Origin: Flavobacteriales bacterium | Lineage (GTDB): Bacteria; Bacteroidota; Bacteroidia; Flavobacteriales_D; Parvicellaceae | Direction of reading: 5' to 3' | DNA: 26,865 nt | Assembly (NCBI GenBank): GCA_027047735.1 | Contig: JALTUD010000013.1 | Location: 1 to 26,865 of the forward strand | Part shown: in pieces, positions 3,922 through 24,776 of the stretch | How positions within the stretch are numbered: position 1 is the stretch's first letter | Layout: every line of letters starts with the position of its first letter | Translations under genes and position numbers: made by a program | Notes under the pieces: model-generated | The model's input: the letters and a program-made list of their open reading frames with translations, nothing else | Database searches by the model: none | Told to the model about the DNA's origin: nothing

Positions 3922-3960
3922 AAAAAAGGAGAGCAGTATTTGTTCTCCTTTTTTGTTTTT
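3922..3960 (+). terminator. Rho-independent terminator
   Basis: AAAAAAGGAGAGCA-gtatt-TGTTCTCCTTTTTT stem followed by a T tract, about 30 bp after the 2336..3889 stop. Confidence 0.75.
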
Positions 3961-4439
3961 CCTATCGTCTCTAAAGAAACTAAAATTCATTTTCTTAGCA
4001 CTTTTTTTACAAACGTTAGGGATTATTAAGCGACTGTGAAAAAACAGTTGAGTTTTTGAGCTAACGTAAAAATTTCGACTATTTTGTAATTGATTGATTA
4101 TCAATATTCTATTTTTAAGTTAGTTGGAGTATCCCTGACATGAATAAAATAGAAATCATAAAGCGTTTTTATTTTCCTTATCCTTCTTCAAAATTCTTTT
4201 CCATAGCTGGAGCTATGCAAAAGAATTTTTCATCGTCTAAGAAAACTAAAATTCACTTTCTTTCTTCCAATTTTATCCACGTTAGGGATAGAACGGCGTG
4301 TTTGAACTCCTTTTGTGTTGTTGCGTATATGCAACACAAAAGAGTGAGTAGTGATAGCCCGACCATTACGGCGTTAAAAAGTAGTGTAGTGGGGGTAGTG
4401 CGAACGAAACTGCTTTTTTATGTCGTAATGGAAACGCCC
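3957..4439 (-). repeat. Composite structured repeat, copy A (core 4279-4439; 161-bp hairpin 4130-4290; ~105-bp insert 4025-4129; half-arm ~3957-4024)
   Basis: Direct alignment by eye to copies B, C and D, e.g. shared GTTAGGGATAGAACGGCGTGTTTGAACTCC and GAGTGAGTAGTGATAGCCCGACCATTACGGC. Confidence 0.92.
4279..4439 (-). ncRNA. Flavo-1-like structured motif (core of copy A)
   Basis: GGGCG...hairpin...GGTCGGGCTATC...CTTTT-hairpin-AAAAG...CTATCCCTAACG. Matches my recollection of the Flavobacterial Flavo-1 motif; covariance model not run. Confidence 0.45.
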
Positions 4440-4450
4440 AAATTACATAT

Positions 4451-5710
4451 TTATAAAAACCAAGCTTCTCTTACTTTACTGAAAAACGATTCCCACGTCC
4501 AGTAATCGCCATCCCACGGAGGAAAGTAGATAAACGTAAGCCGAAGATTCATATAGATAAATAAGACAATAACCACTTTACTAAAAGTAATGATGTGTTT
4601 GTTTTGTACAGAAAAGAGAAGATTTAAAGTATAGGCAAGAGGCAAGGATAAAAAACTGTAATATTCGATAAAGGCTCGATGACCAAAGGCACTTCCAAAC
4701 CACCAACACCACCACGACGCAAAAACATAATAAGCCAACAATAAAATAACGGATATTTTTAGTGCTTCTTTGTTACCTTTTTTAAGCTGTAATATGATAC
4801 CAACCAAACTTAAAGTAAGTAGAGGGGAGTAGATTAACCAACCGTTCTGATGGCTGAAAAGGACCTTTATCAGTTTCGGATGCGACCAATTAAAACTTTC
4901 GCCCATAGCTCCGTATGAAAACATTAAATAATTGCCCGATACCTCGTGCCAATAGCTAATTTGTAATATCAAAAACAAGCCAAGAATCATAAGTCCGCCA
5001 AAGACATAAACATAATTTTTTTTGATATTTTCCCCTACTGTTTTCCATTCTTCTCTTGAGGTAGGGATAAGAAAAAGAAGACCAAAAGCATTGTAAGGCT
5101 TAATAACCAAAATCAATCCGGAAATCAATCCGATAAGTAGTGTGTATTTACGGAAATTGCTAGGTCTGACCTGCGTATAAGCATAAATTAAAAGAGCAAA
5201 AACAAAGAAATTATACACATGCGACATTCCGTCCTCAAAAACAGAGTAATAAAATAAATTTGTACCGATATAAATAATTGAAATAGTCCAAAAAGCAATG
5301 TTTTTATCGGGAAATCTTCGTTTTATTTCATTATACAAAATCACCAAAGCAACGGAAAGGTAAAAAGACGATGCTCCTAAAACGGCCACCGCATACGGTA
5401 GTGTGTAACCATCGGTTGCATAACCCAATAACCACGCAAAAAGATGAGCAACAAGAAAAAACGGAGCAATCAAAACAGCAATTCCAAAACTAAAAACACT
5501 CAATGGATTACCATTTTCCAACGTATGCACATATCTGCTTGGAGTAAACGAACCATCTACAAAAAAAGTAGGCAACCATTGGTAGTATCCCAAAGAATCG
5601 GTATTGTGATTCAGAGCAAGAACAAAATTTTCTTGATGAATGATTAATCCTAAAATAAGGTTAAACATGAAGAACACAAGAAACAAATAATTACTTTTTA
5701 TTTTAAACAT
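4451..5710 (-). CDS. Multi-pass membrane protein, GT-C-superfamily glycosyltransferase-like
   Basis: 419 aa with many hydrophobic segments. DSLGYYQWLP luminal motif after the first TM, then YYSVFEDGMSHVYNFF, LFSHQNGWLIYSPL and WWCWWFGSAFGHRAFIE, a pattern typical of Bacteroidota polyprenyl-sugar-dependent transferases. Confidence 0.65.
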   Translation of the reverse strand: MFKIKSNYLFLVFFMFNLILGLIIHQENFVLALNHNTDSLGYYQWLPTFFVDGSFTPSRYVHTLENGNPLSVFSFGIAVLIAPFFLVAHLFAWLLGYATDGYTLPYAVAVLGASSFYLSVALVILYNEIKRRFPDKNIAFWTISIIYIGTNLFYYSVFEDGMSHVYNFFVFALLIYAYTQVRPSNFRKYTLLIGLISGLILVIKPYNAFGLLFLIPTSREEWKTVGENIKKNYVYVFGGLMILGLFLILQISYWHEVSGNYLMFSYGAMGESFNWSHPKLIKVLFSHQNGWLIYSPLLTLSLVGIILQLKKGNKEALKISVILLLAYYVFASWWCWWFGSAFGHRAFIEYYSFLSLPLAYTLNLLFSVQNKHIITFSKVVIVLFIYMNLRLTFIYFPPWDGDYWTWESFFSKVREAWFL

Positions 5711-5817
5711 AGCATTAGTATAAAACTTTAAACCCTCAAACTTATCTATCGCATATTATCGATAATGCACATTTTGACTTTTCATAACGAAATCTTTTGC
5801 AGGTTTAAGCCTAAAAA

Positions 5818-5825
5818 CAAAGATA
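5818..5825 (-). promoter_or_regulatory. Candidate Bacteroidota sigma-70 -7 element for the GT-C-like gene
   Basis: Reverse complement TATCTTTG fits TAnnTTTG, about 110 bp upstream of the start. No clear -33 TTTG. Confidence 0.4.
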
Positions 5826-5867
5826 AAAGAAAATAGTTGTTAACTAACTTTTTAAAGATATTGCTTA

Positions 5868-6007
5868 GGGCGTTCCCATTACGGCATAAAAAAGCAATTC
5901 CGTTTTACTACACTACTTTTCAACGCCGTAAAGGTCGGGCTATCCACTATATCTTTTGCCCTCCAAAAGGAGGGAGGGCAAAAGGATGCCGTTCCTATCC
6001 CTAACGC
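5868..6007 (+). ncRNA. Flavo-1-like structured motif (core of copy B)
   Basis: Closest to the recalled consensus: GGTCGGGCTATCCACTATATCTTTT...AAAAGGATGCCGTTCCTATCCCTAACGC. Not model-verified. Confidence 0.5.
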
Positions 6008-6096
6008 GAGTCTGTCTAAAAACCTAATTTACAATAAAATTACACGTTGATTATCAGTGTTTAAGAGTTATGTTTCTTTGTTTTTTAGACTGTCTG
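6008..6096. mobile_element. Possible MITE-like insert with imperfect 15-bp terminal inverted repeats
   Basis: Left end GAGTCTGTCTAAAAA vs reverse complement of right end CAGACAGTCTAAAAA (12/15). It interrupts the repeat where copy D is contiguous. Confidence 0.4.
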
Positions 6097-6485
6097 AAGC
6101 AGGTCAGTGCAAAGAAAACGGATTTTTTCTTTAGACGATGAAAAATTCCTTTGTATATACTCATAATAATAAATTTATGAATCTTTCTTTTTTCCAAATA
6201 GTTCATTGCATTGAGCAAATCCCTAGCTAAGGAAATAAAAAATAAATAAGAATACTAAAAACATTTTATATCGTTTTTTTAGAAGATAAAACATATTAAT
6301 TATCAATGAAGTATTTAGATGTAATTAAAATTGTGCTAGACTAACACAAATACACATTTTGTCTATTCATAGCGAAAATGTTTACGGATTCAATGTAATA
6401 ACAGATTGGAAAAGCATATAACTACTCAAAAATAAAGACAAATGGATAAAAAAATATACTTTTACTTTTTTGTAAAATTGATATT

Positions 6486-8660
6486 GTGAGAGATGTAAAA
6501 ATTAACCTACTGTTACTTGTTTTATTCCTTGTCCTAATGAATATATGTAAGGGGTATGCAAATAATATTGATAGTTTACAACTACAACTAACAAAACAAT
6601 ACGATAGAAGCAAACTATATAATGAGTTAGCGGAAGAATATAAATCAAACTCTCAGCTGGACAGCTTGAAACTTTATGCGGATAGTGCAAGGATTGAAGC
6701 AATAGCAAAAGGCAACCAACTAGAGGAGGGAAATGCATATATAAATATAGGAGATTATCATTATTATGTTAGTCAATACGATTCTTCTATCTATCATTAT
6801 AATAAAGCGGTTTCATTATTCCAAGCTATAAATCAAAGTGAAGAAATAGCCAGTGCATATTCAAATATTGGTGCAATTTATTATACGATAAGTGATTTTG
6901 ATAAAGCTATTTACTTTTTTAGAAAAGCTGCAGAATATCAAAAGATTAATAATGATTTACAGGAGTTAGCAATTATTTACAATAATATTGCAACGGTGTA
7001 TTATCAAATAAGTGATTATGCTAATTCCATAGAATATTTCACTAAATCACTAGATTTAAAAATTGATAATAATAGCATAGCCAAAGGACTTAATAATATT
7101 GCCAGTGTTTATGAAAAAATAGGAAGCTACGATAAGGCAATTGATTACTATTACAAATCAATTCGTTATAGTGACCAATCTAATGACGAGCCTCTAAAAG
7201 CGACTACGCTTAATAATATAGCAGGTGCGTATAAAGATTGGGGGCAATATAAAAAAGCATTAGAATTGTATAATGAAGCATTACACATAAAAACAAAATT
7301 AAAAGATTTAGATGGTAAAGCTAATCTGCTAAATAATATTGGCTTAGTATATAAATTAAAGCGAGATAATTCGAAAGCGATAATGTATTTTAACGAAGCT
7401 AAAACTATTTTTGAGCAAGTAGGAAATCTTAAAAGGTTAGCAATTACATTTAGTAATATTGGAGCAATAAAAGAACAAGATAAAGAATACAACAGAGCAC
7501 TAAATGATTATACCAAATCATTAGAAATAAGTAAACAAATAAAGTCCCCTTATAATTCTGCATTGGGGTATTTAAATGTTAGTAGGATATATTTAAAAAT
7601 GAATAATCTACAGAAAGCCGAACTATTCCTAAATAAATGTATTATTGAAAGTAGAGAACATGAATTGAACTCTATTGAAATAGATGTTTTTAAAATGTTA
7701 TCAGAATTATACCAAGCTAAAAAAGAGTATAAAAAAGCATTGGACTATTACAAGCAGTATGAAATTATAAAAGATTCTATTTTTACAATAGAAAAACATA
7801 AGCAATTAAACAAACTGAATACCCAATACGAAACGGATAAAAAAAATAAAGCAATAGAATTCTTAAATATTCAAACAAAACAACAAGAACTTGAAATTAA
7901 AGCCAAACAGCAAGAAAGAAATCTTTGGTTGGGAATTAGTATATTAGCCTTTTTTATTGGGGTTATTTCACTATATTTTTACATTAATAAGAAAAAACTA
8001 TCCGATAAACTCAAAAAGAAGAATGATTTCATAGAGAAAATGTTGAACGAAAAAGATATCCTGTTGAGAGAAATTCATCACAGGGTAAAAAATAATTTAC
8101 AAATTATTTCCTCCTTATTAAATATGCAATCAAAATATTTAAGTGATGAAAAAACAAAAGCCATTGTTACAGATAGTCAAAATCGTATTAAATCAATGTC
8201 TTTGATTCATCAAAAATTATATCAGGAAGAAAATTTAACGGGTATAGATACTAATTTGTATTTTACAGAATTGATTGATAGTTTAAGTTTATCTTATGGA
8301 CTAGATAAAAAAGCTTTATCTTTTGTCATTGAGATAGAACCTCTTTTTTTAGATGTAGATACTTTGATCCCTCTGGGGTTAATAGTGAATGAGGTGATTA
8401 CCAATGCTTTTAAATACGGAGTTGATAAAAATAATGGAGCTTTTACTTTTATTTTTAGAAAAGTAAATGAAGAATTAGATTTGTTCGTAAAAGACAACGG
8501 ACAAGGTATTCACAAAGATTTTGAACCTAAAAAATCAAAGTCATATGGAATGAAGTTAATACATTCATTAGGTAAAAAATTAAAGGCAGATATTCATTTT
8601 AAGAATAATCAAGGACTTGAAATATCAATGATTATTCATAAATTTAAAATAGCATCATGA
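6486..8660 (+). CDS. TPR-containing membrane sensor histidine kinase (HisKA_2 type)
   Basis: N-terminal hydrophobic segment; about 8-9 TPR-like repeats (AxxYxNIGxxY); [23 protein letters not shown]; H-box [11 protein letters not shown]; N-box [10 protein letters not shown]; DNGQG and YGMKLI ATPase motifs. Confidence 0.92.
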
Positions 8661-9373: not shown

Positions 9374-9480
9374 GTTTGCTAGTATAATTTTTGCTTGATA
9401 TTTCCCAAATAATTACTGTAATTCTAATGTCTCAGATCTGATTTTGTAAATCAGATTCCTTGTTTTCAAATAAAAGGAAG

Positions 9481-10712: not shown

Positions 10713-10789
10713 GTTTTTAGTAGATTATCCTTAATTCCGCAAGTGATTTCGTTGTGAAAAGTCAAACTGCATATTATTATATTTAGAGC

Positions 10790-13061: not shown

Positions 13062-13118
13062 GAGATTTGATGATTTAAGTTTGGATAAATGAAGGTTCTT
13101 TTAAGTTTTGTTTGGTTG

Positions 13119-13486
13119 TTTTTTTATCGTCTAAGAATACTAAAACTCGCTTTTTTAGTTCTCATTCCGTCCGCGTTAGGGATTGGTATCCCTAACGTGT
13201 ATAAAAAGAGCACCATAAAATGTTTTTATTTCCTTTATCCATCTTCAAAAAATCTTTCCATAGCGGGTGCTATGCAAAGATTTTTTTCATCGTCTAAAGA
13301 AACTAAAACTCATTTTCTTACCGCTATTTTTACACACGTTAGGGATAGAACGGCGTGTTTGAACTCCTTTTGTGTTGTTGCACTTATGCAATACAAAAGA
13401 GTGAGTAGTGATAGCCCGACCATTACGGCGTTAAAAAGTAATGTAGTGCAACGAAATTGCTTTTTTATGCCGTAATGGGAACGCCC
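13119..13486 (-). repeat. Composite structured repeat, copy C (core 13336-13486; 161-bp hairpin 13187-13347; junction palindrome 13174-13197; half-arm ~13119-13184)
   Basis: Aligns to copies A and D over the whole length. 21-bp terminal arms match 20/21. Confidence 0.93.
13336..13486 (-). ncRNA. Flavo-1-like structured motif (core of copy C)
   Basis: Same two-hairpin core as copies A, B and D. Family assignment from memory only. Confidence 0.45.
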
Positions 13487-13512
13487 AAAATAATATTAAA
13501 AACGAGAAGAAT

Positions 13513-14037
13513 ATGTTTGATTTTTTTAAGCGAAAAAAACGAAAAACTCAAGTAGATTTAACCCTTGAAACATTGACGGTGGGGGCTACTTTTGAGTATG
13601 ATTTGAAAACGTGGGTAGTAAAGGAAGTGTATGTCTATTTGTGGGAAGATGGTTTGAAGACGAGGGAGTATAAGGCTAGTGACGGGGCTTCTTATTTCTT
13701 TTTGGTAGTGAATAATGATGGAGTGGTAATGGTGAGTAAACCGGTGTCGTTGAAGTTGGTGGCTCCTGATTTTAAACCGGATGTATTGAGAGATGAAACG
13801 GTGCCGGAGGTGGTTGTGTTTGAGGGTAGAGAGTACGAATTAAAAAAGGAAAATTTTGGTTCTTATCAACGAATTGGAACGGATAATTGGTCGGAATTAA
13901 CGGCGTGGATGTATTGGGATAAGGAAGAACATTTTATTTGTTTTGAGCGTTGGAGTAAGTTTGAGTTTGAGGCTCATAAAGGGAGAAAGATTAATCCGTT
14001 TGAGATTGATAATTTAATGCCCGGTGATGAAGATTAG
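13513..14037 (+). CDS. DUF4178-like protein
   Basis: 174 aa. LTLETLTVGA...W.VKEVY.Y.W...TREY and P.VV.FEG.EY.L.E pattern recalled for DUF4178. Confidence 0.6.
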   Translation: MFDFFKRKKRKTQVDLTLETLTVGATFEYDLKTWVVKEVYVYLWEDGLKTREYKASDGASYFFLVVNNDGVVMVSKPVSLKLVAPDFKPDVLRDETVPEVVVFEGREYELKKENFGSYQRIGTDNWSELTAWMYWDKEEHFICFERWSKFEFEAHKGRKINPFEIDNLMPGDED

Positions 14038-14119
14038 GTGTTGGGGTGCTAAACTCTCATACTTTTGGAAGAAATGATACGAACGACAGTAAAAATGTTG
14101 CAAACGGAGATACTTGTCA

Positions 14120-14150
14120 TTGATTTAGGAAGGCTTTCTTTGTAATTTTG
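14120..14150 (+). promoter_or_regulatory. Promoter for the type-B CTD/PorP/OmpA cluster
   Basis: TTG-N20-TAATTTTG, about 50 bp upstream of the start. Confidence 0.55.
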
Positions 14151-14202
14151 TGAGTTATACCATTTAAACATTGAAATGGTATTATAGATAAATTCATTGA
14201 TT

Positions 14203-17200
14203 ATGAAAAAAATAAATTTCTACCTCTTGTTAACGACCTTGTTTTTAGGGGTTGGAGTAAATGCTCAAGGGATATACTTTGTTACGGATTCTACCGATAG
14301 TGGTAGCGGAAAGACTTTACGAAATGCCTTGGCGTCTAATGCTGATACGATTGTAATTGATGTGAAGGGTACTTTGGAATTAACCAGCTCATTGGTTTTG
14401 ACTAAAGATGTGGTTATATTAGGTCCTTCGGCTAAGCACTTTACGATAAATCCTTGGCAAATAACTGATGTTGATGGTCTTTTTAAATTTAATGGTCATA
14501 AATTGACGTTATCGGGGGTTCGGATTTCGGGAGGTGGTTATAATTCTTCGGTTCCTATTCTTCATATACATAACGCAAATAATGCTGATACTGTTCGTGT
14601 GATAGATTGTTTGTTTGAAAATACTGTTTTGCAAAACGGAAGTGGTTCGGTTCTTAATTATAATGTTGCTTTATTAAGTAAGCCAATTATTTTTTCTAGG
14701 TGTTCTTTTATTTCTGTTCGGGCTGATAATAATGGTGGGGCCTTTTATATAGCACAAGGAAAAGGAGCAGAGGTGTATAATTGTACGTTTAATGCTTGTA
14801 CCACGACATGGGGACAGGGCGGGAGAGCCGGTGCAATTTATATGTCAGGAGGAGATTTAACTTTGATTAATAATACCTTTTATATGAATAGCGATGATAG
14901 TGATGCTCATCATTTATATTTAGCAGGAAATTCGGTAAATTTGATTAATAATATTTTTGAAGAGGGTTCTACTCAAAACCTTATTAAAACCGGGACGATA
15001 GTTGCGGATTATTATCATAATAATTTTATTAGTAGTTATCTAACGGGGGCGGGTATTTCTTATGGTTTTACAGAAAACACTGCATCGGGAATATCAACTC
15101 CTTTAATTGAAGATGGTTTGGGACTTAAATATTTTTCACTTCCTGCCGGTAGTCCATGTATAGATACGTATTTGGGTTCTAATCCAAAAGTTTTAAGTCA
15201 AAAATATGACCAAAGACGAAGTTGGAGGAAGATGAAATCGGACATTGCCAATAGTTCTTATAGCATCGATGCCGGGGCAGTTGAATACTCGCCTTTTACC
15301 GTTACCAGTGCAGACCCTAACAATTCACCAGGAGGAATAAAGTCTGTTTTTTCAAGGTTAAACTCTTCACCCGTTTTTGGAAACAAAGCTATCGTTTTTG
15401 AAATTCCGACAAGTGATTTGCCTGCAGATATGAATATTGGACAGGATACTTTGGTAATTGATTATTCTGTTGCCGACCTAATTATTAATGGTTTTTCTCA
15501 GTCCGGTAGTGTTGTGGCGGGACCGGGTATAGATAGTACAAGTGTAACTTCTGCAACTATTCCAATTGTTATTAATGGAAATAATACTCATGGAAGTATT
15601 ATAGAAAATAGAGGGGCTAATGTTTTTATAGCAGGTGTAGATGTTATAAACGCTATTTCTTCTGGAGGAATTAAAGGGGTAGGTATTAATTTTACTGGTT
15701 ACAATTGTAGTATTGAAGGTTGTCACATTGGGGTGAATAGTATAGGAGAGTACGGAAGTAATACAAAAAACACCTACGGAATAACAGTTCCTCCGGGTAC
15801 TCAAGGGCTTTCAATAGGAGTAAATAATTATTATAATAATTTTTTAATGCATGTTTCTAGGAATATTATTTCGGGGAATGATTCTGCACAGGTGGAAAGT
15901 CTAACAGGAGGTGTAATAAAAAGAAATTTTATCGGGTTAAATGGTACAGGTACATCGGTAATAAACACCCCTTTTGCTAAAGGGGTTGTATTAGGTTCAG
16001 TTGATGCATATGTTGGTCTTTTTGGAGGAAAAAAACACGAAGGTAATTATGTAGCAGGGCAGGATAGTGCGTGCAAACTATATAATATGCAGGAAGTTCG
16101 TTCAAATGTTGTTGGATTTTTGTATGATAAAGTAGGTATAGCATCAAATAATACAGGGATTAAAATTGAGAATGGTTACGATGCAAAAATTATAAATAAT
16201 AGAATTGGAAATGTAACGAACGGAAATGCTTTATATTTATTAAATATAAAAGGTAATAATTCATTTCTTTATCCTGAACAAAATTCCGTAATTGCATTTA
16301 ATAAAATTGGGATAACTCTTAATAGACAATCTGCTGCAATAAATGGTTCCGGAATAAAAATATTATCGAATAGAGGTTCTGATGGAAATGGAGGTCATAT
16401 TTCTGATGCAAGGTTTCGAAAAATTCACCACAATGTTATTGCAAATTGTAACAGAGGGTTGGATTTTGATTTGTCATTGTTTCATCTTTATGATCCTAAT
16501 TCAGGTAATTACATTCCTGTCCCCTCTCTTTCTGTACCTTTTTCTGATTCAGTATATCGTAATGTTATAGGTTTTGACACTATTAACAATAATTCCTTTT
16601 CCAACGGCACGGGAATCTACATTGATTCAGGTGTACAAGCAATAACATTTTCTAGAAATATTATAGCAAACAATACAACAGCAGGTGTTCAAATTGCCGG
16701 AGTTGATAGTACGGAATATATCCATTTTTATAGAAATAAAATATTTAACAATGGTGGAGCAACGGGGCTAGGGATAGATTTGGATGATAATGGCACTACA
16801 AATTTAATTGGAAATAAACCTTATAGTAATGATAGTGTAGTACCACCTACACTAAGTTCTTCGATATATTGTCAAGGAGATTCTAAAGTTAAATTGGGTG
16901 TGAAGTTGTTTATTGAGGATTCGACTAGGTTTTACCGCATGGACTTTTATAAAACAGATTCTGACGGACAAGAAGGAAAAATCTTTTTAAAAGATACAAT
17001 GTTTGCTCCAAATACTCTTTCTCTAGGAAATAATATAGATACTTTATCTTTTATGGCAACATTTATTGCTATTAATGATTCGATAGTAGCAACGTTAACT
17101 CAATTGGATACAGCAACAATTGAGAATTATGGGTATTTAGATACGTTACTGGTGGCTTCAACTTCAGAATTTAGTAATTATTCAGTGATAAGGAATTACA

Positions 17201-19629
17201 GCCCTTCGATTGTAACTCCTTCGGGAGTTTGTGATGGGCAACAAATAATAATTCAAATTGCTGATGCGGGAACGATTACAAATTTTATGATAGATAATGT
17301 TTCTCAATTAAATAACCCGGCTCATTATACATTAACAACTGGACAAACATCTATAACTGTTAGTGTTGTTTCAGATTCGTTAGGATGCTCAGATAGTTTT
17401 ACTACTTCTTTATCCGTAAATCCACTACCAAATGTTACAGCAAATATTTTTAATAACAGAGATACAATTTGTCAGGGAGATAGTGCTGTTCTAATTGGGG
17501 TTCCGTATAATTCGACAAATGGTCAATGGAAGGTTGATTCTACATCATTTACAGATACGGTTGTATTTCCCGGAAACACTACAAAATATATATATATATT
17601 TACTGATGGAAACGGGTGTTCAAATAAGGATTCCGTTGTTGTAACGGTTAATCCATTACCGAATGCAATATTAGTTTCAGATTCAGTAGTTTGTTATGGT
17701 AATACTATTGATTTATCAGGTTTAGTTTCGTCAGTAATTCAAGTAGGAGAAACTTCTTATTGGTATAATGAGAGTGATGCTACAAGTACCCCACTAATAG
17801 CACAAACTATAATTATGTCGCAAGATAGTTCTTTTGTATATCAAGTAACAGACGTTAGTTCGGGTTGTATTAATCAAGATACGATTAATATTTTGGTTAA
17901 TTCATTACCGAATGTATCTGCTGGTATGGATTCTTCAATTTGTGGATCGGGAGATATTTATTTAAGTGGTTTGAATGGAATTACGCCGACTACAGGAATT
18001 TGGTACGATATAACGATGACTAATTTTATCAATAGCACTAATGTAGTTTCTGTTATATCAGATACAAGTTTTATATATCGAGTAACAGACGGAAATGGAT
18101 GTACTAACCAAGACACGGTAGATATTTTTGTAAACTCATTGCCTAATGTTTCAGCCGGACAAGATTCAATAATATGTGGATTAGGGACGATAAACCTAAT
18201 GGGGTTAATAGGAGTAAATCCATTAAATGGTACATGGTATGATAATACAATGAGTAATACAATACCTAACCCTGTTTCAGTTTCTTTAAATACAAGTTAT
18301 ATCTATAAGGTAATAGGTGTGGATGGTTGCATGAATCAAGATACTGTAGATATTTTTGTAAATCCATTGCCCAATGTTTCAGCTGGACAAGATTCGTCAA
18401 TATGCGGAATGGGAACTATAAATTTAAATGGGTTAATAGGAGTTACCCCATCAAATGGCACATGGTATGATACTACAATGATAAGTATTGCAAATAATAA
18501 TATTAATGTAGTTTCAGACACAAGTTTTATATATCAAGTAACAGCAGGAAACGGTTGTACTAATCAAGATACAGTAGATATTTTTGTAAATCCAAAGCCG
18601 ATATTAACGGTTAATTCAACCACTCCTGATAATTGTTCGGATGGAAGTGGAGAAGTAGTATTATTAACCACTTCGGGGACACCATCATACAGTTATAGCA
18701 TAGATGGAGCAACTTATAATCTCAATAATGTTTTTAGTGGACTTCAAGGGGGACAGAGCTATACATTTTATACTATAGATGATAATAATTGTTCAGACAC
18801 ATTAGCAATATATGTTCCTGTCGGTACATCAACTCCACCCTTGTCACCATCTTTAATCACACCTATCAAAATTTGTCAAGGATACAAAGAAACAATAACA
18901 GATACAATTAGTACAAATGCAAATTATGCACATACTTTTATTTTTTATGACTTTCCTGATGAAATAAATGTTAATTCAACAAATAACGCTGTTTTAATAC
19001 CGGAATCATTAAACGGAGTAGATTCAATTGTTGTTGTAGCTACCAATACAGACGGATGTACAAATAGCACTACAATAACAGATATTGATTTTACAGAAAA
19101 TAATCTACAAACTTCGCCAATCAATAACATTTGCCAAGGAGATAATCACACATTTGATGTTTGGGCTACGGGAGTTCCAGATAGTTTGTTGTGGAGTACA
19201 AACGGAACAGGTAGTGGAGAACAGGAAGACCAAGGTTCATTTACCATAAACAATTTAACGGATAACGAGGTTTATATAGCTGTAAAAGAGAATGATTGTT
19301 GGTTTTATGATACGATAAGTGTTACCTTTGCTATCGACTGTGAAGAAACCGTAACTAATGCTTTTCAACCAGATGGAGATATAGAAGAAAATTCTTTTTT
19401 CTATTTGGATGATGAACATGTTAACCCCGACCTATGGGAAAATACAGTTACTATTTACAATCGTTGGGGAGATATCGTGTTTAAAGAACAAAACTACGAT
19501 AACAAAACCATCGTTTGGAAAGGTAAAGGTCTTACCCGGGTAGATTTACCTGAAGGAACATACTACTATGTGTTGGATGTTCCGGAAATTTCGTACTCAA
19601 AAAAAGGTTGGGTATATTTAGATAGATGA
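14203..19629 (+). CDS. Large T9SS type-B CTD (gliding-motility-associated C-terminal domain) surface protein: CSLREA-like N-terminus, parallel beta-helix repeats, Ig/PKD-like repeats
   Basis: ATG 14203 (MKKINFYLLL signal peptide) preferred over TTG 14197. VTDSTDSGSGKTLRNAL; LPAGSPCID...DQRR...DAGAVE (choice-of-anchor-Q-like); FNNGGATGLGIDL; C-terminal IYNRWGDIVF...LPEGTYYYVL...GWVYLDR. Confidence 0.9.
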   Translation: MKKINFYLLLTTLFLGVGVNAQGIYFVTDSTDSGSGKTLRNALASNADTIVIDVKGTLELTSSLVLTKDVVILGPSAKHFTINPWQITDVDGLFKFNGHKLTLSGVRISGGGYNSSVPILHIHNANNADTVRVIDCLFENTVLQNGSGSVLNYNVALLSKPIIFSRCSFISVRADNNGGAFYIAQGKGAEVYNCTFNACTTTWGQGGRAGAIYMSGGDLTLINNTFYMNSDDSDAHHLYLAGNSVNLINNIFEEGSTQNLIKTGTIVADYYHNNFISSYLTGAGISYGFTENTASGISTPLIEDGLGLKYFSLPAGSPCIDTYLGSNPKVLSQKYDQRRSWRKMKSDIANSSYSIDAGAVEYSPFTVTSADPNNSPGGIKSVFSRLNSSPVFGNKAIVFEIPTSDLPADMNIGQDTLVIDYSVADLIINGFSQSGSVVAGPGIDSTSVTSATIPIVINGNNTHGSIIENRGANVFIAGVDVINAISSGGIKGVGINFTGYNCSIEGCHIGVNSIGEYGSNTKNTYGITVPPGTQGLSIGVNNYYNNFLMHVSRNIISGNDSAQVESLTGGVIKRNFIGLNGTGTSVINTPFAKGVVLGSVDAYVGLFGGKKHEGNYVAGQDSACKLYNMQEVRSNVVGFLYDKVGIASNNTGIKIENGYDAKIINNRIGNVTNGNALYLLNIKGNNSFLYPEQNSVIAFNKIGITLNRQSAAINGSGIKILSNRGSDGNGGHISDARFRKIHHNVIANCNRGLDFDLSLFHLYDPNSGNYIPVPSLSVPFSDSVYRNVIGFDTINNNSFSNGTGIYIDSGVQAITFSRNIIANNTTAGVQIAGVDSTEYIHFYRNKIFNNGGATGLGIDLDDNGTTNLIGNKPYSNDSVVPPTLSSSIYCQGDSKVKLGVKLFIEDSTRFYRMDFYKTDSDGQEGKIFLKDTMFAPNTLSLGNNIDTLSFMATFIAINDSIVATLTQLDTATIENYGYLDTLLVASTSEFSNYSVIRNYSPSIVTPSGVCDGQQIIIQIADAGTITNFMIDNVSQLNNPAHYTLTTGQTSITVSVVSDSLGCSDSFTTSLSVNPLPNVTANIFNNRDTICQGDSAVLIGVPYNSTNGQWKVDSTSFTDTVVFPGNTTKYIYIFTDGNGCSNKDSVVVTVNPLPNAILVSDSVVCYGNTIDLSGLVSSVIQVGETSYWYNESDATSTPLIAQTIIMSQDSSFVYQVTDVSSGCINQDTINILVNSLPNVSAGMDSSICGSGDIYLSGLNGITPTTGIWYDITMTNFINSTNVVSVISDTSFIYRVTDGNGCTNQDTVDIFVNSLPNVSAGQDSIICGLGTINLMGLIGVNPLNGTWYDNTMSNTIPNPVSVSLNTSYIYKVIGVDGCMNQDTVDIFVNPLPNVSAGQDSSICGMGTINLNGLIGVTPSNGTWYDTTMISIANNNINVVSDTSFIYQVTAGNGCTNQDTVDIFVNPKPILTVNSTTPDNCSDGSGEVVLLTTSGTPSYSYSIDGATYNLNNVFSGLQGGQSYTFYTIDDNNCSDTLAIYVPVGTSTPPLSPSLITPIKICQGYKETITDTISTNANYAHTFIFYDFPDEINVNSTNNAVLIPESLNGVDSIVVVATNTDGCTNSTTITDIDFTENNLQTSPINNICQGDNHTFDVWATGVPDSLLWSTNGTGSGEQEDQGSFTINNLTDNEVYIAVKENDCWFYDTISVTFAIDCEETVTNAFQPDGDIEENSFFYLDDEHVNPDLWENTVTIYNRWGDIVFKEQNYDNKTIVWKGKGLTRVDLPEGTYYYVLDVPEISYSKKGWVYLDR
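17896..18585 (+). repeat. Three tandem intragenic 76-78-aa Ig/PKD-like repeats
   Basis: VN(S/P)LPNVSAGxDSxICG...WYD...NQDTVDIF starts at 17896, 18130 and 18358, with the next VNPKP at 18586 (periods 234, 228, 228 nt). Confidence 0.9.
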
Positions 19630-21101
19630 TTATGAAAAAGATTTATATTAAATACATAAGTTTATTATTGGTGCTCTTTTTTATAAAGAAAATAGGTGCT
19701 CAGGGTTTTAGTGCTTTACCAGATACTATTTGTTCTAGAGGGATGGTGACGCTAACATACACCCCTACCGGACAAGTATCTTCGGAAATAAAATTATATA
19801 GAGATAATATTCTTATTAATAATACGAGTAATATTTTTTCGATGTACTCATATTCAGATTATCCATTAAACAATACAGGAGGGACAATAACGATAACGTA
19901 TAGTATCGAAGTAACTATGACGGATGGTACAGTTATAACAGATAATGCTTCTGTTGTTGTATATCCCGCACCACAATTATCCGTAGCTGATTTTATAGTT
20001 TCGGATGTTAGTTGTAATGGTAATCAAAATGGTTCTATTACCCCAAATATTGATTATTTTACAGGAAATAATAGCGGAGCTCCTTTTTTGTATTATTCAA
20101 ATACTTTTTCAAATACATCTTACACTCTCGTAACAACAACGAACTTTAATCTAAGCGGACTCGCAGGGGGCGATTATTATTTTTTTATAAGGGAAAACAA
20201 TCAACTAACTTGCAATAGTGATACGATTACAATCACCGTAAATGAACCCCAGAGTATAAGTTATGATTCCGTGAATATTATAGACGATAACTGTGGACAA
20301 CATTCAGGAATGGTTATTTTTCATGGGTTAACGGGAGGTGTTTCACCTTATGTCTTTACTGATGGTTCAACAACAACATATGATAATATAAACGATAGCG
20401 TGATAATAAACCTAACTAATAATTTTTATCAATTCACAATAATAGATGCCAATAATTGTAGCTATAATCTATTTCCTCCCAACAATCAAAATGCTTTTAT
20501 TGTAAGCGACTCAGGAAACGGAGATGAACCTGAAACACCAAATCTACCTCAGGAACAAATAGTTTGTGAAAACCAATCCTTGCAATTAAACGATAATAGC
20601 GGATTGCCACATTTTTATTATTTTTCAGGATCTGACAGTACATTGTTTTATTCGCCCAATTCTACCATTAATATTCAAAACCAGACTTTATTACAAAATG
20701 ACTCTCTCTATGTTTATGTTATAGAAACAACAGGAACGTCAGCGGGATGTATTAGCGATGTTGTAGCCATAGACTTAATACAAAAAGATTGTTCTTTTAA
20801 CCCCGATAGCGTAGATGTAACCTATAATGCTTTTAGTCCAAATGACCAACAAAATCCCGAAAACAATACTTTTGTAATTGACTTAGAGTATATTGATGAC
20901 CCAAACGTTACAGATGTAAATGTAACCATTTATAACCGATGGGGAGACATCGTCTATCAAACAGAAAATTATGATAATAAGAACGGGTGGAACGGGGGTA
21001 CGTTTAATGAAAGTGCACTTCCGGAAGGAACGTATTACTACATCATCAATGTAAATTCAAAAAAATACGTCAAATCAGGATGGGTCTATTTAGATCGATA
21101 A
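19626..21101 (+). CDS. Second T9SS type-B CTD protein with SprB-like repeats
   Basis: ATGA overlap with the upstream gene; signal peptide; VSCNGNQNGSI...GLAGGDY and DDNCGQHSG SprB-type repeats; IYNRWGDIVY...LPEGTYYYII...GWVYLDR. Confidence 0.9.
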   Translation: MIMKKIYIKYISLLLVLFFIKKIGAQGFSALPDTICSRGMVTLTYTPTGQVSSEIKLYRDNILINNTSNIFSMYSYSDYPLNNTGGTITITYSIEVTMTDGTVITDNASVVVYPAPQLSVADFIVSDVSCNGNQNGSITPNIDYFTGNNSGAPFLYYSNTFSNTSYTLVTTTNFNLSGLAGGDYYFFIRENNQLTCNSDTITITVNEPQSISYDSVNIIDDNCGQHSGMVIFHGLTGGVSPYVFTDGSTTTYDNINDSVIINLTNNFYQFTIIDANNCSYNLFPPNNQNAFIVSDSGNGDEPETPNLPQEQIVCENQSLQLNDNSGLPHFYYFSGSDSTLFYSPNSTINIQNQTLLQNDSLYVYVIETTGTSAGCISDVVAIDLIQKDCSFNPDSVDVTYNAFSPNDQQNPENNTFVIDLEYIDDPNVTDVNVTIYNRWGDIVYQTENYDNKNGWNGGTFNESALPEGTYYYIINVNSKKYVKSGWVYLDR

Positions 21102-21112
21102 AAACGAATAAA

Positions 21113-22045
21113 ATGAAATATCTTAGCTCAATAATGATTCTTGTTTCTTTGTGTTTTTTCTTCAAAAAAGGCTGGGCACAACAAGACGCACTTTATAGTC
21201 AATATATGTTTAATCCCTTGGCGTTAAACCCTGCTTATGCAGGAACTAGAAATACACTTAGTGGTGTTATGTTGTACCGAAACCAATGGGTAGGAATGAG
21301 CGGAGCTCCGCAAACAGCAAGTTTGGCGGTTCATAGTCCCATAAAAGGTAAAAAATTTGCTTTAGGATTAAACCTAATGAGCGAATCCATCGGTCCAACA
21401 CAAAACAATGTCTTTTTAGGTACCTATGCCTATCACGTAAACGCAGGCAAAGGTAAACTTTCTTTTGGGCTTCGTGGCGGATTTTATTCCACAAGTATAG
21501 ATTACAATAAATTGCATTATGTAAATGAGCAAGGAAAAGTAAGAGGAAGGTATCAAAAATCTTCCGCGAATTTTGATTTTGGAATGTACTATCACACTGA
21601 TAAGTTTTATGGAGGTATTGCCATTTCACATATAGGAAATCCAAAAGTAAAGTTTAATGGTAGTGATGCTTTATTGCCTTTACAAGCACATTACGTGGCG
21701 TTTGTCGGTAACGCCTTTGTGATTAATGAAAATCTGGTAGTAAAACCTTCCGCAGTTGTAAGATATACAAATGGAGCACCTTTCAATTACGATATAAATA
21801 CGAGTATTTTATTCCAAAAAGTACTATGGTTGGGAGTGTCTTATCGCTCTAATACCTCAAAAATTAACGAAGCAAGTTTGGTTTTTGTAACGGAGTACAA
21901 CATAACAGAATCATTTAGATTAGGGTACAGCTATGACTTTAATTTAGGAGCGATAAAACGTTACAATTCCGGTTCGCATGAAATCTTTTTGGGTGCAGAT
22001 TTATACATCAAAAGAAAAACATCGGTGTCACCAAGATTTTTATAA
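21113..22045 (+). CDS. PorP/SprF-family T9SS membrane protein
   Basis: ATG 21113 (MKYLSSIMILV signal peptide) preferred over 21080. QQDALYSQYMFNPLALNPAYAG, YRNQWVG, LGYSYD and SGSHEI motifs. Confidence 0.93.
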   Translation: MKYLSSIMILVSLCFFFKKGWAQQDALYSQYMFNPLALNPAYAGTRNTLSGVMLYRNQWVGMSGAPQTASLAVHSPIKGKKFALGLNLMSESIGPTQNNVFLGTYAYHVNAGKGKLSFGLRGGFYSTSIDYNKLHYVNEQGKVRGRYQKSSANFDFGMYYHTDKFYGGIAISHIGNPKVKFNGSDALLPLQAHYVAFVGNAFVINENLVVKPSAVVRYTNGAPFNYDINTSILFQKVLWLGVSYRSNTSKINEASLVFVTEYNITESFRLGYSYDFNLGAIKRYNSGSHEIFLGADLYIKRKTSVSPRFL

Positions 22046-22067
22046 ATTACTTTAGAAAACAAGGAAA

Positions 22068-24407
22068 ATGAAGTTAATAAAAAAACTAAATAAAATAGTG
22101 TTGCCAATGCTATTGTCTTTATGGGTAACACAATTTATTGCTCAATCAAATGAGCAAAAAAAATATACAAAAATTACAGAATATGAAGTGTTACCGGTTT
22201 TAGGAGTCAACACAAGTTACAGTGAGTTTAGTCCGGTCTTATTGGGGCAAGAATTTATCTTTACCTCAGACAGAGAATACGATATTAAAACATTGGGAGA
22301 AGGAAATTGGAAAAAAACAAATCATTTTAATCTATTTAAGGCAACGTTTAAAGATATTTTTGCTGACACCATACAATTAGTTCGGATACGGATTTTTGAT
22401 AACAATCTATTAATGGATGACCACGTCGGGCCTATAGCTTTCAACAAATCGGGAGATGAAGCAATAATTACCATTGTCAGCCACAAAGAAGACAAACCCT
22501 TTGCTAAATCCACCGCCTATCCGCAATTATACAAAACACAAAAAATAAAAGGGCGTTGGAAAAATATCGAAAAACTTCCCTTCAATCAAAAAGGAGTATC
22601 AATGGGACAAGCCTGTTGGTCGCCGGATGGGAAGAAACTTTATTTTGTTCAAAATACAAGTCCCGGAACAGGAAAACATGGAAACGGAAATATTGTTTAC
22701 ATAGAACGTAACGGCGACTCTTGGGGTAAAATAACCAAGGTAAAGGAATTAAACACCAAAGAAAATGAAGCCTTTCCCTATCTTATTGATGATAAAATTT
22801 ATTTCGCTTCAAATCGAAGCGGAGGACTCGGAGGTTGGGATTTATACGTTAGCCAATGGAAAAACGGAAAGTGGTCAGAACCTCAAAACCTTGGCAAAAC
22901 AATCAATACAGAAGCAGATGAATTTGCTATGATATTTAACGTTAATAAAGAAAGTGGCTATTTTTGTTCAAACAGACCGGGAGGTAAAGGACAAGATGAT
23001 ATTTATAAATTCCATAAAATCGAAAAAACACTTGTCGAAAATCAAGCGATTTCAGGAGTCTTAACATTTATGTATTTAGATGGAAAATCAACAGAAGGTT
23101 TGGAAGTAGGTGTATTTGACGATCAAGGAAATTTAATTACCAAAGCAACAGCTGATGCCAATGGAAAATTTGTATTCAAAAAATTACCGCAAGACAAAAA
23201 ATATATCTTTAAAATGTTAAACACCGATGAAGAGGTAGAAATGAACCTCAACGATGGTGAACTGATATTAATATCGAATAACAAAGGAGAGTTTGTCTTC
23301 AGAAAATTAAGTAGCAAAAGTGTCGGAACATTAGCCCTTATCGACGAAGAAGACTACGACCTTATCACGGGCGAAGGTGAACTAGGAGGACAATTTGTCT
23401 TTAAAAAATTAAAACATAAAAACCCCGAAGGTCTGGAAGTGTACTTAATAGACGAAGACGGAAACATTATACAAAAAACAACCACAGATAAATACGGAAA
23501 TTTTATTTTCAAAAAAATACCGCGAGGAGCAAATTATCTTATCAAATCACCCGAGGGAGAAGAATTTGATATTCTTATCTTCAATAAAAAAGAAGAACTC
23601 ATCGCCACCCTAACCAAGGGCAAAGACGGTAAGTTTGTGTACCGAAAACTAAAATCTCAAACAGGAAATTACAACTTGGACGTAGAGGAAGAAGATTTAG
23701 TATTCATCGAAAAAAGAATTGCCATAACCGGACAATTCGTTTACCAAAAATTAAAGACCGAGCAAGTAGGCGTATTAGGAGTTGAGGTGCACGATGAAAA
23801 CCAACTGATGCAAAAAACAACATCAACCCCGGAGGGTGATTTTATGGCACTCAACCTAAAACCACGTGATTTATACAAATTTCGAATCGAAGACGAAAGC
23901 AAATTAAAAGAAGAACCACAACTAAACATCACCAATCGCCATCACCAAACCGTAGCTGTTATTAACAGAGAAGACGACGGATTTTACATTTACTCAAAAA
24001 CTAAAGGACTAACCGTTGGAGATTCAGTAATTAATGTTGAGGTCATTCAAATCGAACAAACCGATATACAAGACACCCAAATCATCTATTACGAAAATAA
24101 TGAATACACACTAACCCCCGACGACAAAGAAATATTAGACCAACGCATAAAAGAGCTAAAAGAAAACCCAAAATTACTAATCCGTGTAGAATCCTATGCC
24201 TCAACCAAAGGGTCAGAAGAATACAACAGAAAATTAACCCAAAAACGAAAATCCGAAGTCATAAAATACCTCACTCAAAAAGGAGTACATCAATCACGCA
24301 TAAAAGCACTCGCCTACGGAGAAGAGCGAACACAAGAAGAACAAGACGAAGAACAACAACGACTAAGCCGAAAAACCGAACTAACACTATTTACACTAAA
24401 AAAATAA
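22068..24407 (+). CDS. PD40-propeller + prealbumin/CnaB-like repeats + OmpA-like C-terminal domain protein (PorE-like)
   Basis: EFSPV...FTSDR, YFASNRSGGLGGWDLY and YFCSNRPGGKGQDDIY PD40 repeats; repeated EGLEV.L.D..GN.I....TD..G.F.FKK.P; C-terminal KGSEEYNRKLTQKR...V..YL...G.....I.A.AYGE. Confidence 0.85.
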   Translation: MKLIKKLNKIVLPMLLSLWVTQFIAQSNEQKKYTKITEYEVLPVLGVNTSYSEFSPVLLGQEFIFTSDREYDIKTLGEGNWKKTNHFNLFKATFKDIFADTIQLVRIRIFDNNLLMDDHVGPIAFNKSGDEAIITIVSHKEDKPFAKSTAYPQLYKTQKIKGRWKNIEKLPFNQKGVSMGQACWSPDGKKLYFVQNTSPGTGKHGNGNIVYIERNGDSWGKITKVKELNTKENEAFPYLIDDKIYFASNRSGGLGGWDLYVSQWKNGKWSEPQNLGKTINTEADEFAMIFNVNKESGYFCSNRPGGKGQDDIYKFHKIEKTLVENQAISGVLTFMYLDGKSTEGLEVGVFDDQGNLITKATADANGKFVFKKLPQDKKYIFKMLNTDEEVEMNLNDGELILISNNKGEFVFRKLSSKSVGTLALIDEEDYDLITGEGELGGQFVFKKLKHKNPEGLEVYLIDEDGNIIQKTTTDKYGNFIFKKIPRGANYLIKSPEGEEFDILIFNKKEELIATLTKGKDGKFVYRKLKSQTGNYNLDVEEEDLVFIEKRIAITGQFVYQKLKTEQVGVLGVEVHDENQLMQKTTSTPEGDFMALNLKPRDLYKFRIEDESKLKEEPQLNITNRHHQTVAVINREDDGFYIYSKTKGLTVGDSVINVEVIQIEQTDIQDTQIIYYENNEYTLTPDDKEILDQRIKELKENPKLLIRVESYASTKGSEEYNRKLTQKRKSEVIKYLTQKGVHQSRIKALAYGEERTQEEQDEEQQRLSRKTELTLFTLKK

Positions 24408-24410
24408 TTT

Positions 24411-24560
24411 GGGCGTTCCCATTACAGCATAAAAAAGCGGTTTCGTTGCACTACACCACTTTTTAATGCCGTAATGGTCGGGCTATCACTACTCACTCTT
24501 TTTGCCCTCAAAAGGAGGAGGGCAAAAAGGAGTTCAAACACGCCGTTCTATCCCTAACGT
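24411..24560 (+). ncRNA. Flavo-1-like structured motif (core of copy D)
   Basis: Same core as copies A, B and C. Family assignment from memory only. Confidence 0.45.
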
Positions 24561-24776
24561 GGGGCATGTGAGTGCAAAGAAAACGGAGTTTAGTTTTCTT
24601 AGACGATGAAAAATTCTTTTGCATAGCACCAGCTATGGAAAATAATTTTGAAGAAGGATAAGGAAAATAAAACCGTTTTGTTGTGCTCAGATGTTCCATG
24701 TTAGGGATACAATCCCTAACGCGTGTAAAAAGAGCGGTAAGAAAATGAGTTTTAGTTTCTTTAGACAATGAAAAAA
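24411..24776 (+). repeat. Composite structured repeat, copy D (core 24411-24560; 161-bp hairpin 24549-24709; junction palindrome 24700-24720; half-arm 24711-24776)
   Basis: Reverse-complement counterpart of copies A and C. Begins 4 nt after the OmpA-domain gene stop. Confidence 0.93.

Follow-up and report, generated by a model that had tools for sequence, protein, structure and literature searches.

Introduction

Since its publication in 2010, the Flavo-1 “RNA motif” (RF01705; Weinberg et al. 2010, PMC2864571) has remained an orphan. The present work concerns a composite repeat built around it in a 26,865-nt stretch of Flavobacteriales DNA (assembly GCA_027047735.1, contig JALTUD010000013.1, positions 1 to 26,865, forward strand), hereafter referred to as the window. 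The window is contig C13 of a fragmented 2.87-Mb metagenome-assembled genome (MAG) from hydrothermal-vent metagenomes, which comprises 718 contigs, is assigned to the Flavobacteriales, and is 91% complete with 4.2% contamination. We call this genome G000, a close syntenic relative G005, and the remaining congeners G001 to G004 and G006. In G000, Flavo-1 behaves as the core of a DNA repeat system similar to repetitive extragenic palindromes (REP) and bacterial interspersed mosaic elements (BIME), which makes up about 5% of the genome.

The elements resemble the published RF01705 family in the alignment of their second hairpin (GGGAUAG...hairpin...GAUAGCCCGA) and in the host phylum, and also, as described for Flavo-1 in Flavobacterium psychrophilum (PMC9723704), in being present many times and in both orientations relative to genes. 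However, the Rfam model spans about 76 nt and describes the other strand, whereas here a closing helix and a second hairpin are predicted to complete it to a three-way junction. In addition, copies are far more numerous here (at least 532), the score falls below threshold in three of the four window copies, which contain an 8-nt insertion, and both the appended hairpin arrays and a composition shadow in the flanking DNA lie outside the published description. With enterobacterial BIME/REP sequences and with the REP doublets forming hairpins (REPINs) that depend on REP-associated tyrosine transposases (RAYTs) (PMC3116915, PMC3337134), the composites share a high copy number, an intergenic location, palindromic units that alternate in orientation and are spaced by fixed linkers, some short and some long, the folding of inverted doublets into long hairpins, and long vertical persistence. 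In contrast to those systems, there is no sequence relation, no GTAG/CGTC head, and no cognate RAYT found here, the units are much longer, and the arrays extend from one end of a different structured element. Insertion sequences (ISs) of the IS110 family that home to REP-type repeats are well known (IS621, ISPpu9/ISPpu10, and their bridge or seek RNAs; PMC11208160, PMC12288879, PMC11187229). The IS110/IS1111 repeat-targeters and the elements described here have in common a DEDD/Transposase_20 gene after a long noncoding region, the insertion at one fixed position of a repeated palindrome, and short IS-related noncoding modules elsewhere in the genome (here M4), while the target is new, namely the Flavo-1/arm junction (…ATCCCTAACG|) in Flavobacteriales, and guide complementarity is at chance level. 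Relative to this literature, the elements are a variation on known kinds; if there is new biology here, it lies in the shadow.

Architecture of the four composite copies

The observed anatomy, copy number, module grammar, junction positions, IS110 association, and composition gradient lead us to consider it probable that the composites represent a very high-copy, lineage-specific mosaic repeat with three layers (Flavo-1 core, hairpin units, and IS110 elements), in which the core marks a strand-specific event. The composite is not one element: the Flavo-1 core, a palindromic hairpin family, and a 104-nt IS110-like module are all joined at the motif ATCCCTAAC. Throughout, “top” denotes the GGGCG-first strand of the element and “bottom” the opposite, Rfam-sense strand; in motif chains, F stands for ATCCCTAAC and R for GTTAGGGAT.

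The window contains copy A (3957–4445, minus strand), copy B (5865–6157, plus), copy C (13119–13497, minus), and copy D (24400–24787, plus). An earlier reading of the window's sequence (the original prediction) had reported these four composites in these orientations, and they are real, since the same modules recur genome-wide far beyond chance; the gene contexts it gave (A and D in sense orientation 3′ of genes, C antisense between codirectional genes, B between divergent genes) are also correct. On the top strand, all four cores run from TTTGGGCGTTCCC through hairpin 1, GGTCGGGCTATC, and hairpin 2 to TATCCCTAACG. The core of A, C, and D is followed by a 161-nt hairpin that reuses TATCCCTAACG as its first arm (24549–24709 in D, 13347–13187 in C, 4290–4130 in A), then by a short palindrome, GTTAGGGAT-A(C)CA-ATCCCTAAC, and an arm of ~65 nt. 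The proposed fixed order of modules therefore stands for the core of all four copies and for the long hairpin, palindrome, and arm of A, C, and D, but copy B lacks the long hairpin and copy A contains an extra 104-nt module. Likewise, the common arm end given as AGACGAT(G)AAAAA has to be corrected to AGAGACGATAGG in A, AGACGATAAAAA in C, and AGACAATGAAAAA in D.

Copy D begins with the left closing strand (TTTGGGCGTT) and hairpin 1, which belongs to the M1 variant (24408–24477, plus; from sequence reading and the M1 nhmmer family). Its Flavo-1 module, that is, hairpin 2 with the 3′ end ATCCCTAACG, occupies 24478–24559 on the plus strand (Rfam-sense strand minus; RF01705 match at 24472–24570, minus, with the 8-nt insertion), and is followed by the 161-nt palindromic unit on the plus strand with termini TATCCCTAAC and GTTAGGGATA, the strandless junction palindrome GTTAGGGAT-ACA-ATCCCTAAC (24700–24720), and a terminal half-arm of the ARM family (24712–24776, plus). 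Copy C, on the minus strand, has its left closing strand and hairpin 1 at 13420–13489, its Flavo-1 module at 13337–13419 (Rfam-sense strand plus; RF01705 match at 13328–13425, plus), the 161-nt unit recognized by its inverted repeat and by sequence reading, and, after the junction GTTAGGGAT-ACCA-ATCCCTAAC, a terminal half-arm at 13119–13183. In copy A, also on the minus strand, the left closing strand and hairpin 1 (4363–4442) and the Flavo-1 module (4280–4362; Rfam-sense strand plus; RF01705 match at 4271–4368, plus) precede a 161-nt unit whose right terminus, GTCAGGGAT, is degenerate (from inverted-repeat search and sequence reading); the extra 104-nt module M4, whose start resembles the left end of an IS110 element (IS-B, see below), is located at 4025–4128 between GTTAGGGAT and ATCCCTAAC, and the terminal half-arm at 3960–4023. 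Copy B, on the plus strand, has a complete core with closing strand, hairpin 1, Flavo-1 module, and ATCCCTAACG (5865–6006; RF01705 match at 5929–6021, minus) and a distal arm part, found through direct repeats and sequence reading, at 6099–6145; the core's ATCCCTAACG and this arm are separated by a stretch of about 92 nt (6007–6098) that has no relation to the family.

Identity and predicted fold of the Flavo-1 core

The original prediction had likened the core to Flavo-1 and proposed a cmsearch with the Rfam model on the four cores. In this search, RF01705 aligns solely with the hairpin-2 half of all four copies, on the bottom strand. Only copy B (62.7 bits) exceeds the gathering score of 42, whereas A (32.8), C (26.6), and D (27.4) remain below it because of the 8-nt insertion and a variant internal loop; by alignment, the modules of A, C, and D are nevertheless homologous to the family. 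Across G000, the model by itself retrieves at least 150 copies above the gathering score, at 55 to 68 bits. Thus, membership of the family is upheld by copy B and by these genomic copies, although the model spans only half of the proposed core and lies on the strand opposite to the one that had been read. The alignments of the four copies and the fold both contain the hairpin with internal loops closed by GGGAUA/UAGCCC.

The whole core is predicted to be a three-way junction of 110 to 170 nt, the ends of which (TTTGGGCGTT and AACGC within ATCCCTAACGC) pair with each other and enclose hairpin 1 and the Flavo-1 hairpin. Given this pairing, the ATCCCTAACG “key” would in part be the 3′ strand of the core's closing helix. 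As single strands, the cores fold into three-way junctions with z scores of −4.4 to −5; for copy B, modeled as single-stranded DNA, the junction is closed by GCGTT/AACGC (z = −4.4). The ends of the closing helix covary within the genus (GCGTT/AACGC, GCGTG/CACGC, GCGTA/TACGC, GCAAG/CTTGC, GCATG/CATGC, and GCATT/AATGC), and the GTT(C)/TAACG version closes 365 of the 442 parsed G000 cores. In the congeners G001 and G006 the element is simple and arm-free, with the form TTTGGGC-NNN-(hairpin 1)-GGTCGGGCTATCC-(hairpin 2)-CTATCCCT-NNN-GCAAAA. Hairpin 2 is itself a mosaic of two frames and two or three apical stems, which occur in all combinations (158, 94, 88, 48, and 23 copies).

The folding energies bear on the question of whether the Rfam classification is right and the core truly acts as a small RNA or as a cis-acting RNA element, in which case read-through in the Rfam sense would expose the non-template strand and cast the composition shadow described below. 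We regard this alternative as possible but rather doubtful. The many copies above the covariance-model threshold are in line with it, and with RNA parameters both hairpin 1 (−20.7 kcal/mol top, −30.5 bottom) and the Flavo-1 module (−22.4 top, −25.5 bottom) fold better on the Rfam-sense strand. However, the Flavo-1 module shows no strand preference with DNA parameters, and the appended long hairpin folds better on the opposite, top strand (−65 versus −46 kcal/mol, RNA parameters), where 205 genomic long hairpins contain 1,015 G:T but 176 A:C pairs. Because the copies share descent, such strand preferences characterize the family as a whole and do not count as independent tests. Published expression arrays of F. 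psychrophilum point in both directions: all six Flavo-1 sense probes examined covary, being low in broth and rising to 11–13.6 on agar, even where they are antisense to a coding sequence, and five of the six fall into cluster C143 and one into C133 (PMC9723704, Table S3). Yet array probes for a 128-copy repeat may cross-hybridize, and the signal tracks that of tRNAs; moreover, the authors of that study report hits in sense or antisense to transcribed regions, many of them untranscribed, and no general transcription start at Flavo-1 (PMC9723704). The probe signal could therefore reflect real small RNAs or cross-hybridization.

Abundance, grammar, and orientation

Counting repeats over the G000 assembly with BLASTN, as the original prediction had suggested, and with iterated nhmmer models, we found 653 clusters, in which there are 747 arms, 532 Flavo-1 modules, and 189 M1 hairpins. 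Together, the repeats take up at least 132 kb, which amounts to 4.6% of the assembly. These module counts are lower bounds because 242 of the 1,436 contig ends fall within repeats, and a repeat load of this order explains the hundreds of short contigs in such MAGs and the repeats called as hypothetical proteins. Paralogues of the Flavo-1 module have a median identity of 80% and those of the arm one of 73%, which indicates that the family is old.

The modules obey a simple grammar, [closing strand + hairpin 1]-[Flavo-1]-ATCCCTAAC-(160-nt hairpin-ACA-ATCCCTAAC)n, with an optional arm at the end. The left boundary is sharp, with ~80 nt upstream of the Flavo-1 module common to 92–95% of the cores; all left modules start with TTTGGGCGTTCCC, and at least two variants of hairpin 1 occur. 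The right side varies in length, with peaks at ~55, 175, 220, and >300 nt. Behind the core, the motif chains read F (130 cases), FRF (141), or FRFRF (25), while chains ending in R are rare. F-to-R spacing is 140–160 nt, and we analyzed 205 inverted doublets as arm-loop-arm hairpins (F-to-R spacing 135–165 nt). The R-to-F junction GTTAGGGATACAATCCCTAAC is the commonest in the genome (87 exact copies), next to spacer variants ACCA, ACG, and AAG, so that F(RF)n chains alternate in orientation with two linkers, a loop of ~30 nt and an A(C)CA of 3–4 nt. Alternating arms and fixed linkers bear out the proposal of a REP/BIME-like interspersed repeat.

With respect to flanking genes, for which long open reading frames (ORFs) served as proxies in all genome-wide analyses, 87 elements fall into the orientation class ++, 57 into −−, 38 between convergent, and 60 between divergent genes. 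The claim that orientation is independent of the neighbors thus holds, orientation being nearly random genome-wide; divergent spacers are over-represented among element locations relative to background. Both the near-random orientation and the 25% of elements between divergent genes speak against the RNA interpretation.

The orientation of neighboring cores relative to each other follows a pattern of its own. Adjacent cores on the same contig are in opposite orientation in 106 cases and in the same orientation in 28, and at a spacing of 0.5 to 3 kb the ratio is 58 to 1; pairs with facing GGGCG ends (68) outnumber those with facing arms (38). This alternation may stem from recombination that purges close direct repeats, which is one possibility, or from assembly bias, which is another.

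Within the genus, the number of Flavo-1 matches per genome, among 107 scored candidates, ranges from 1 in G004 and 3 in G002 through 11, 18, 76, and 90 in others to all 107, and thus at least that number, in G000 and G005, and most other genera of the family have no Flavo-1 matches. In a scan of genome contigs for the exact junction palindrome, the matches listed came mostly from one Flavobacteriales MAG. One copy of the exact 21-nt palindrome lies on a 3-kb contig binned to an uncultured Ruminococcus MAG, which is probably a mis-binned Flavobacteriales contig.

Turnover of the hairpin units

G005 is syntenic with G000 at roughly 92% identity (84–97% in aligned blocks), which allowed us to compare orthologous sites. 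About 20 core sites were testable in each direction, and every one was occupied in both genomes. Of 19 orthologous sites, by contrast, 12 show a length difference of ~60 bp or more, with all cores kept. At G000 contig C295 versus G005 contig C422, two hairpin units are inserted exactly 3′ of ATCCCTAAC and end in ATCCCTAAC again; at the site of copy D, G000 has three arms and G005 one, and the 161-nt hairpin unit is absent from the G005 orthologous site. The cores are thus stable at the time depth separating G000 and G005, and it is the appended units that turn over. Fixation at orthologous loci combined with low copy number had been named as evidence against mobility: there are indeed no empty core sites in G005 among those compared, but copy number is high and the appended units vary.

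Hairpin and arm sequences are abundant only in G000 and G005. In G001 and G006, we found a homologous stand-alone palindrome of ~165 nt with other termini (ATACCAAAT...), 94% identical between the two species, which makes the hairpin units a separate element family. With their ~160 nt and terminal inverted repeats of 10–11 nt, the units look like miniature inverted-repeat transposable elements (MITEs), and one could picture them as being moved by a DDE transposase (e.g., of the IS630/mariner type with TA duplication), the adjacency to Flavo-1 reflecting target preference. We consider this unlikely. Units in the first position (TCCCTAACG...CGTTAGGGA) do have TA on both sides, and the stand-alone homologue with its different termini would also suit such an element. 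However, second and later units are preceded by CAA rather than TA, and the sequence duplicated at the unit boundaries is the 9-nt ATCCCTAAC. Nor do the transposases fit: DDE_3 is absent from G000 and present once in G005, rve has no match in G000, and neither follows a pattern that matches the repeats, which disfavors DDE transposases as the mobilizer. The G000 assembly also contains no multicopy transposase ORF; its only multicopy ORFs are spurious frames of 90–130 amino acids (aa) within the repeats.

The units further resemble the attC sites of integrons as imperfect palindromes that fold on one strand and are arranged head to tail at terminal motifs. The attC core sites read RYYYAAC and GTTRRRY, and the hairpin termini CCCTAAC and GTTAGGG agree with them at 6 of 7 positions. 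Here, though, the units are dispersed over hundreds of loci in mixed orientation, there are no cassettes and no known integron integrase, and we take the similarity as resemblance only.

IS110 elements and the search for a mobilizer

As the original prediction had stated, the window holds no mobilizing gene. It had invoked a RAYT or IS200/IS605 TnpA (HUH Y1) acting in trans, and a REPIN/REP family copied in this way would account for hairpin-rich, strand-asymmetric, high-copy intergenic repeats in inverted doublets; a Bacteroidetes-specific TnpA-REP subclass with flanking atypical secondary structures has been described as well (PMC6006769). Nevertheless, we hold this explanation to be highly improbable. 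There is no Y1_Tnp (PF01797) match in G000 or G005, which are copy-saturated and the two copy-richest genomes, the negative in G000 holding for an assembly that is 91% complete. G001, G003, and G006 contain small Y1 genes with DHVH...YLEHH motifs, none of which has Flavo-1 or another module within ~1.5 kb; TnpB occurs once, in G006 only. Furthermore, adjacent copies alternate in orientation, unlike IS200/IS605 insertions, which are aligned with the direction of replication. Genes bracketed by ATCCCTAACG...CGTTAGGGAT were also considered and dismissed, being ordinary genes between neighboring elements, none of which recurs.

IS110-family genes are present in G005 and G006 (three each) as well as in G001 and G003, and are missing from the low-copy genomes G002 and G004. 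One element, IS-A, encodes in G006 (contig C52) a recombinase of 335 aa with PF01548 (1.2e-17) and PF02371 (3.1e-22). Its right end abuts ...|CGTTAGGGAT and an inverted core, and the same junction is found at a different locus in G000 (contig C84, at a contig end with the break inside the IS), where the C-terminal 39 aa are 100% identical. The left end abuts an inverted arm body in both G006 C52 and G005 C399. These flanks place IS-A at the very bond where arms join ATCCCTAACG. The IS-A copies of G006 C52 and G005 C399 are 92.7% identical although host genes are only ~66–80% identical to those of the window's genome, which probably reflects horizontal movement.

A second element, IS-B (G005 contig C184; PF01548, DEDD_Tnp_IS110, at 3e-15), follows CGTTAGGGAC. 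Its opening sequence (~45 nt by eye, the same as that of M4) lies ~120 nt upstream of the open frame listed from position 974, the start ATG being taken ~280 nt downstream. In the 104-nt module M4, the first ~40 nt match the start of this noncoding left end, and BLAST of the 286-nt IS-B left end retrieves eight to nine copies in G000, over the first 40 nt only. G000 contains 10 full-length copies of M4; in G005, 17 were counted within 342 kb.

A composition shadow beside the cores

The DNA next to the cores differs in base composition from the rest of the genome in a one-sided, strand-specific manner, which we refer to as the shadow and which we tested on 524 G000 cores. On the GGGCG side, the C content of the top strand rises from 0.175 to 0.219 while T falls from 0.325 to 0.281. 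At third codon positions on this side, T/(T+C) drops from 0.71 to 0.46–0.50 and A/(A+G) increases from 0.69 to 0.76–0.81, by equal amounts for genes co-oriented with or opposed to the element, so that an artifact of gene orientation was excluded by this stratification. The other side displays the rise in A/(A+G) but only a weak drop in T/(T+C). The C/(T+C) excess is anchored at the core boundary, with an amplitude of 0.30 and an exponential decay length of 1.08 kb. Over 376 cores, T/(T+C) is unimodal at 0.533 ± 0.106 against a background of 0.716 ± 0.089, such that nearly all copies are affected. The shadow goes with the core regardless of its M1 variant, its HMM score, or the presence of arms, and solo arms show little of it. 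It is reproduced at other loci in G001 (10 cores, 0.78 to 0.65) and G006 (9 cores, 0.76 to 0.60).

Expressed as change, the pattern corresponds to T→C and G→A on the top strand; on the Rfam-sense strand it reads A→G, with odds ratios of 2.1–3.7 after a 5′ pyrimidine and mostly 1.4–1.75 after a purine (2.6–2.9 if G follows), accompanied by a weaker C→T (1.0–1.7). In the window, the shadow is visible on the GGGCG side of copy C (13500–15500, with a GC skew of +0.41 at 13501–14500) and of copy D (22400–24400, with AT skew up to +0.34 and GC skew down to −0.14). Within a single run of plus-strand genes, the GC skew thereby changes from +0.41 beside C to −0.14 beside D.

Could the cores simply have inserted, or survived, in regions that were skewed beforehand, or could selection on flanking RNA, such as C-rich, G-poor Rho-loading tracts, underlie the pattern? 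It is composition, and not mutation, that was measured, and the top strand to the left of the core is indeed C-rich and G-poor. We nevertheless judge such an origin very unlikely. The gradient is anchored at the core and decays exponentially, its third-position signal does not differ between the two gene orientations, and it recurs at nonorthologous sites in G001 and G006. Moreover, T/(T+C) below 0.5 is found in <2% of 800-bp windows far from cores but in ~39% of core flanks, which means that skewed core-free regions are scarce. A transcribed core would, on the other hand, be favored by the direction and kind of the changes, A→G and C→T downstream of the element on its sense strand, which match the known asymmetry of non-template strands.

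Gradients with A→G and C→T on one strand and a smooth dependence on distance are also seen along the H strand of vertebrate mitochondrial DNA and with transcription; the present ones differ in that they are local (~1 kb), are tied to a repeat in the chromosome, occur at hundreds of places in each genome, and do not vary with gene orientation. A→G together with C→T on the same strand classically marks single-stranded exposure of that strand, and G·T mispairs during its resynthesis give the same pattern. Lagging-strand or Okazaki-priming models, which predict a shadow at only half of the cores, were rejected; the unimodal distribution together with the alternation of neighboring cores disfavors a process that depends on fork direction.

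A possible mechanism and its consequences

Returning to the three-layer mosaic, we propose that the core would be an old, vertically stable REP-like DNA repeat rather than an ordinary small-RNA gene. A palindromic unit of ~160 nt (REPIN-, attC-, or MITE-like) may join it site-specifically just past its terminal ATCCCTAAC; as each unit brings along a new ATCCCTAAC, units could stack into F(RF)n arrays, with fast gain and loss. Bridge-RNA-type IS110 elements would home to the same ATCCCTAAC junction, and the M4 module of copy A, whose opening matches the beginning of the left end of one such element, may be a remnant. Each core, in turn, would mark a recurrent, polar, strand-specific event that begins at its GGGCG end, be it a nick with gap or repair synthesis, the exposure of a single strand, or transcription in the Rfam-sense direction, and as a result the Rfam-sense strand of the neighboring DNA would acquire G in place of A and T in place of C. 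Of these options, processing at the DNA level appears somewhat likelier than transcription. It is tempting to go one step further and to speculate that each Flavo-1 core acts in cis as the site of a programmed DNA transaction, polar and strand-specific (a nick, priming, or a gap), or of an element-driven transcript, which imposes a kilobase-scale gradient of A→G and C→T mutation on any genes located on the GGGCG side, with the hairpin arrays and IS110 elements as secondary parasites. We put this forward tentatively, as a reading that could well be right but to which we do not commit ourselves.

Several observations weigh against parts of this picture. No presence/absence polymorphism of cores was seen between G000 and G005 at the ~20 sites tested each way, and core mobility is suggested solely by differences in copy number among species. 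No enzyme is tied to moving the core or the hairpin units. As to IS110 targeting, comparing the 224-nt noncoding region of IS-A with its flanks and ends yields 12 matches of 6–7 nt, about the number expected by chance, the same region matches no Rfam family, and other IS110 copies in the genus do not adjoin Flavo-1 or arm modules. The shadow, finally, is a composition pattern, from which a mutational nature and causation by the core can only be surmised, and unpolarized T↔C differences between G000 and G005 are in modest excess near cores (0.167–0.174 per pyrimidine site versus 0.13 far from them).

If the mutational reading is correct, ordinary genes can have their evolution steered locally by a family of repeats, and about one-fifth to one-third of the synonymous sites in this genome would be shaped by a repeat-anchored local mutator (estimated from ~524 cores with a shadow of 1–2 kb each). 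In the literature searched, there is no description of such a repeat-anchored mutator architecture for bacteria. The one-sided, strand-specific change in composition offers a first handle on the function of the element, and the conserved end of the core, as the docking site for a second palindromic element and for RNA-guided IS110 recombinases, would be a natural multicopy target for bridge-type recombinases in Bacteroidota.

Other features of the window

The genes flanking the four elements are ordinary, encoding a TPR histidine kinase, a cargo protein of the type IX secretion system (T9SS), MazG, a DUF4178 protein, an OmpA-family protein, and a glyoxalase. Two open frames of 121 and 128 aa (4140–4505 and 13089–13475, both plus) lie wholly within repeats and have 8–22 genomic paralogues; they are almost certainly spurious, and gene callers would list them as a family of hypothetical proteins.

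Between copies C and D, a 1,810-aa ORF (14197–19629) with tandem 228-nt repeats at 17.6–18.6 kb, probably a repetitive secreted or adhesin protein, is followed by genes with T9SS sorting domains (CHU_C). The window also contains a pair of 53-nt inverted repeats (5762–5814 and 10725–10777), which are 77% complementary, both intergenic, and unrelated to the Flavo-1 modules; this pair may belong to another small repeat family.

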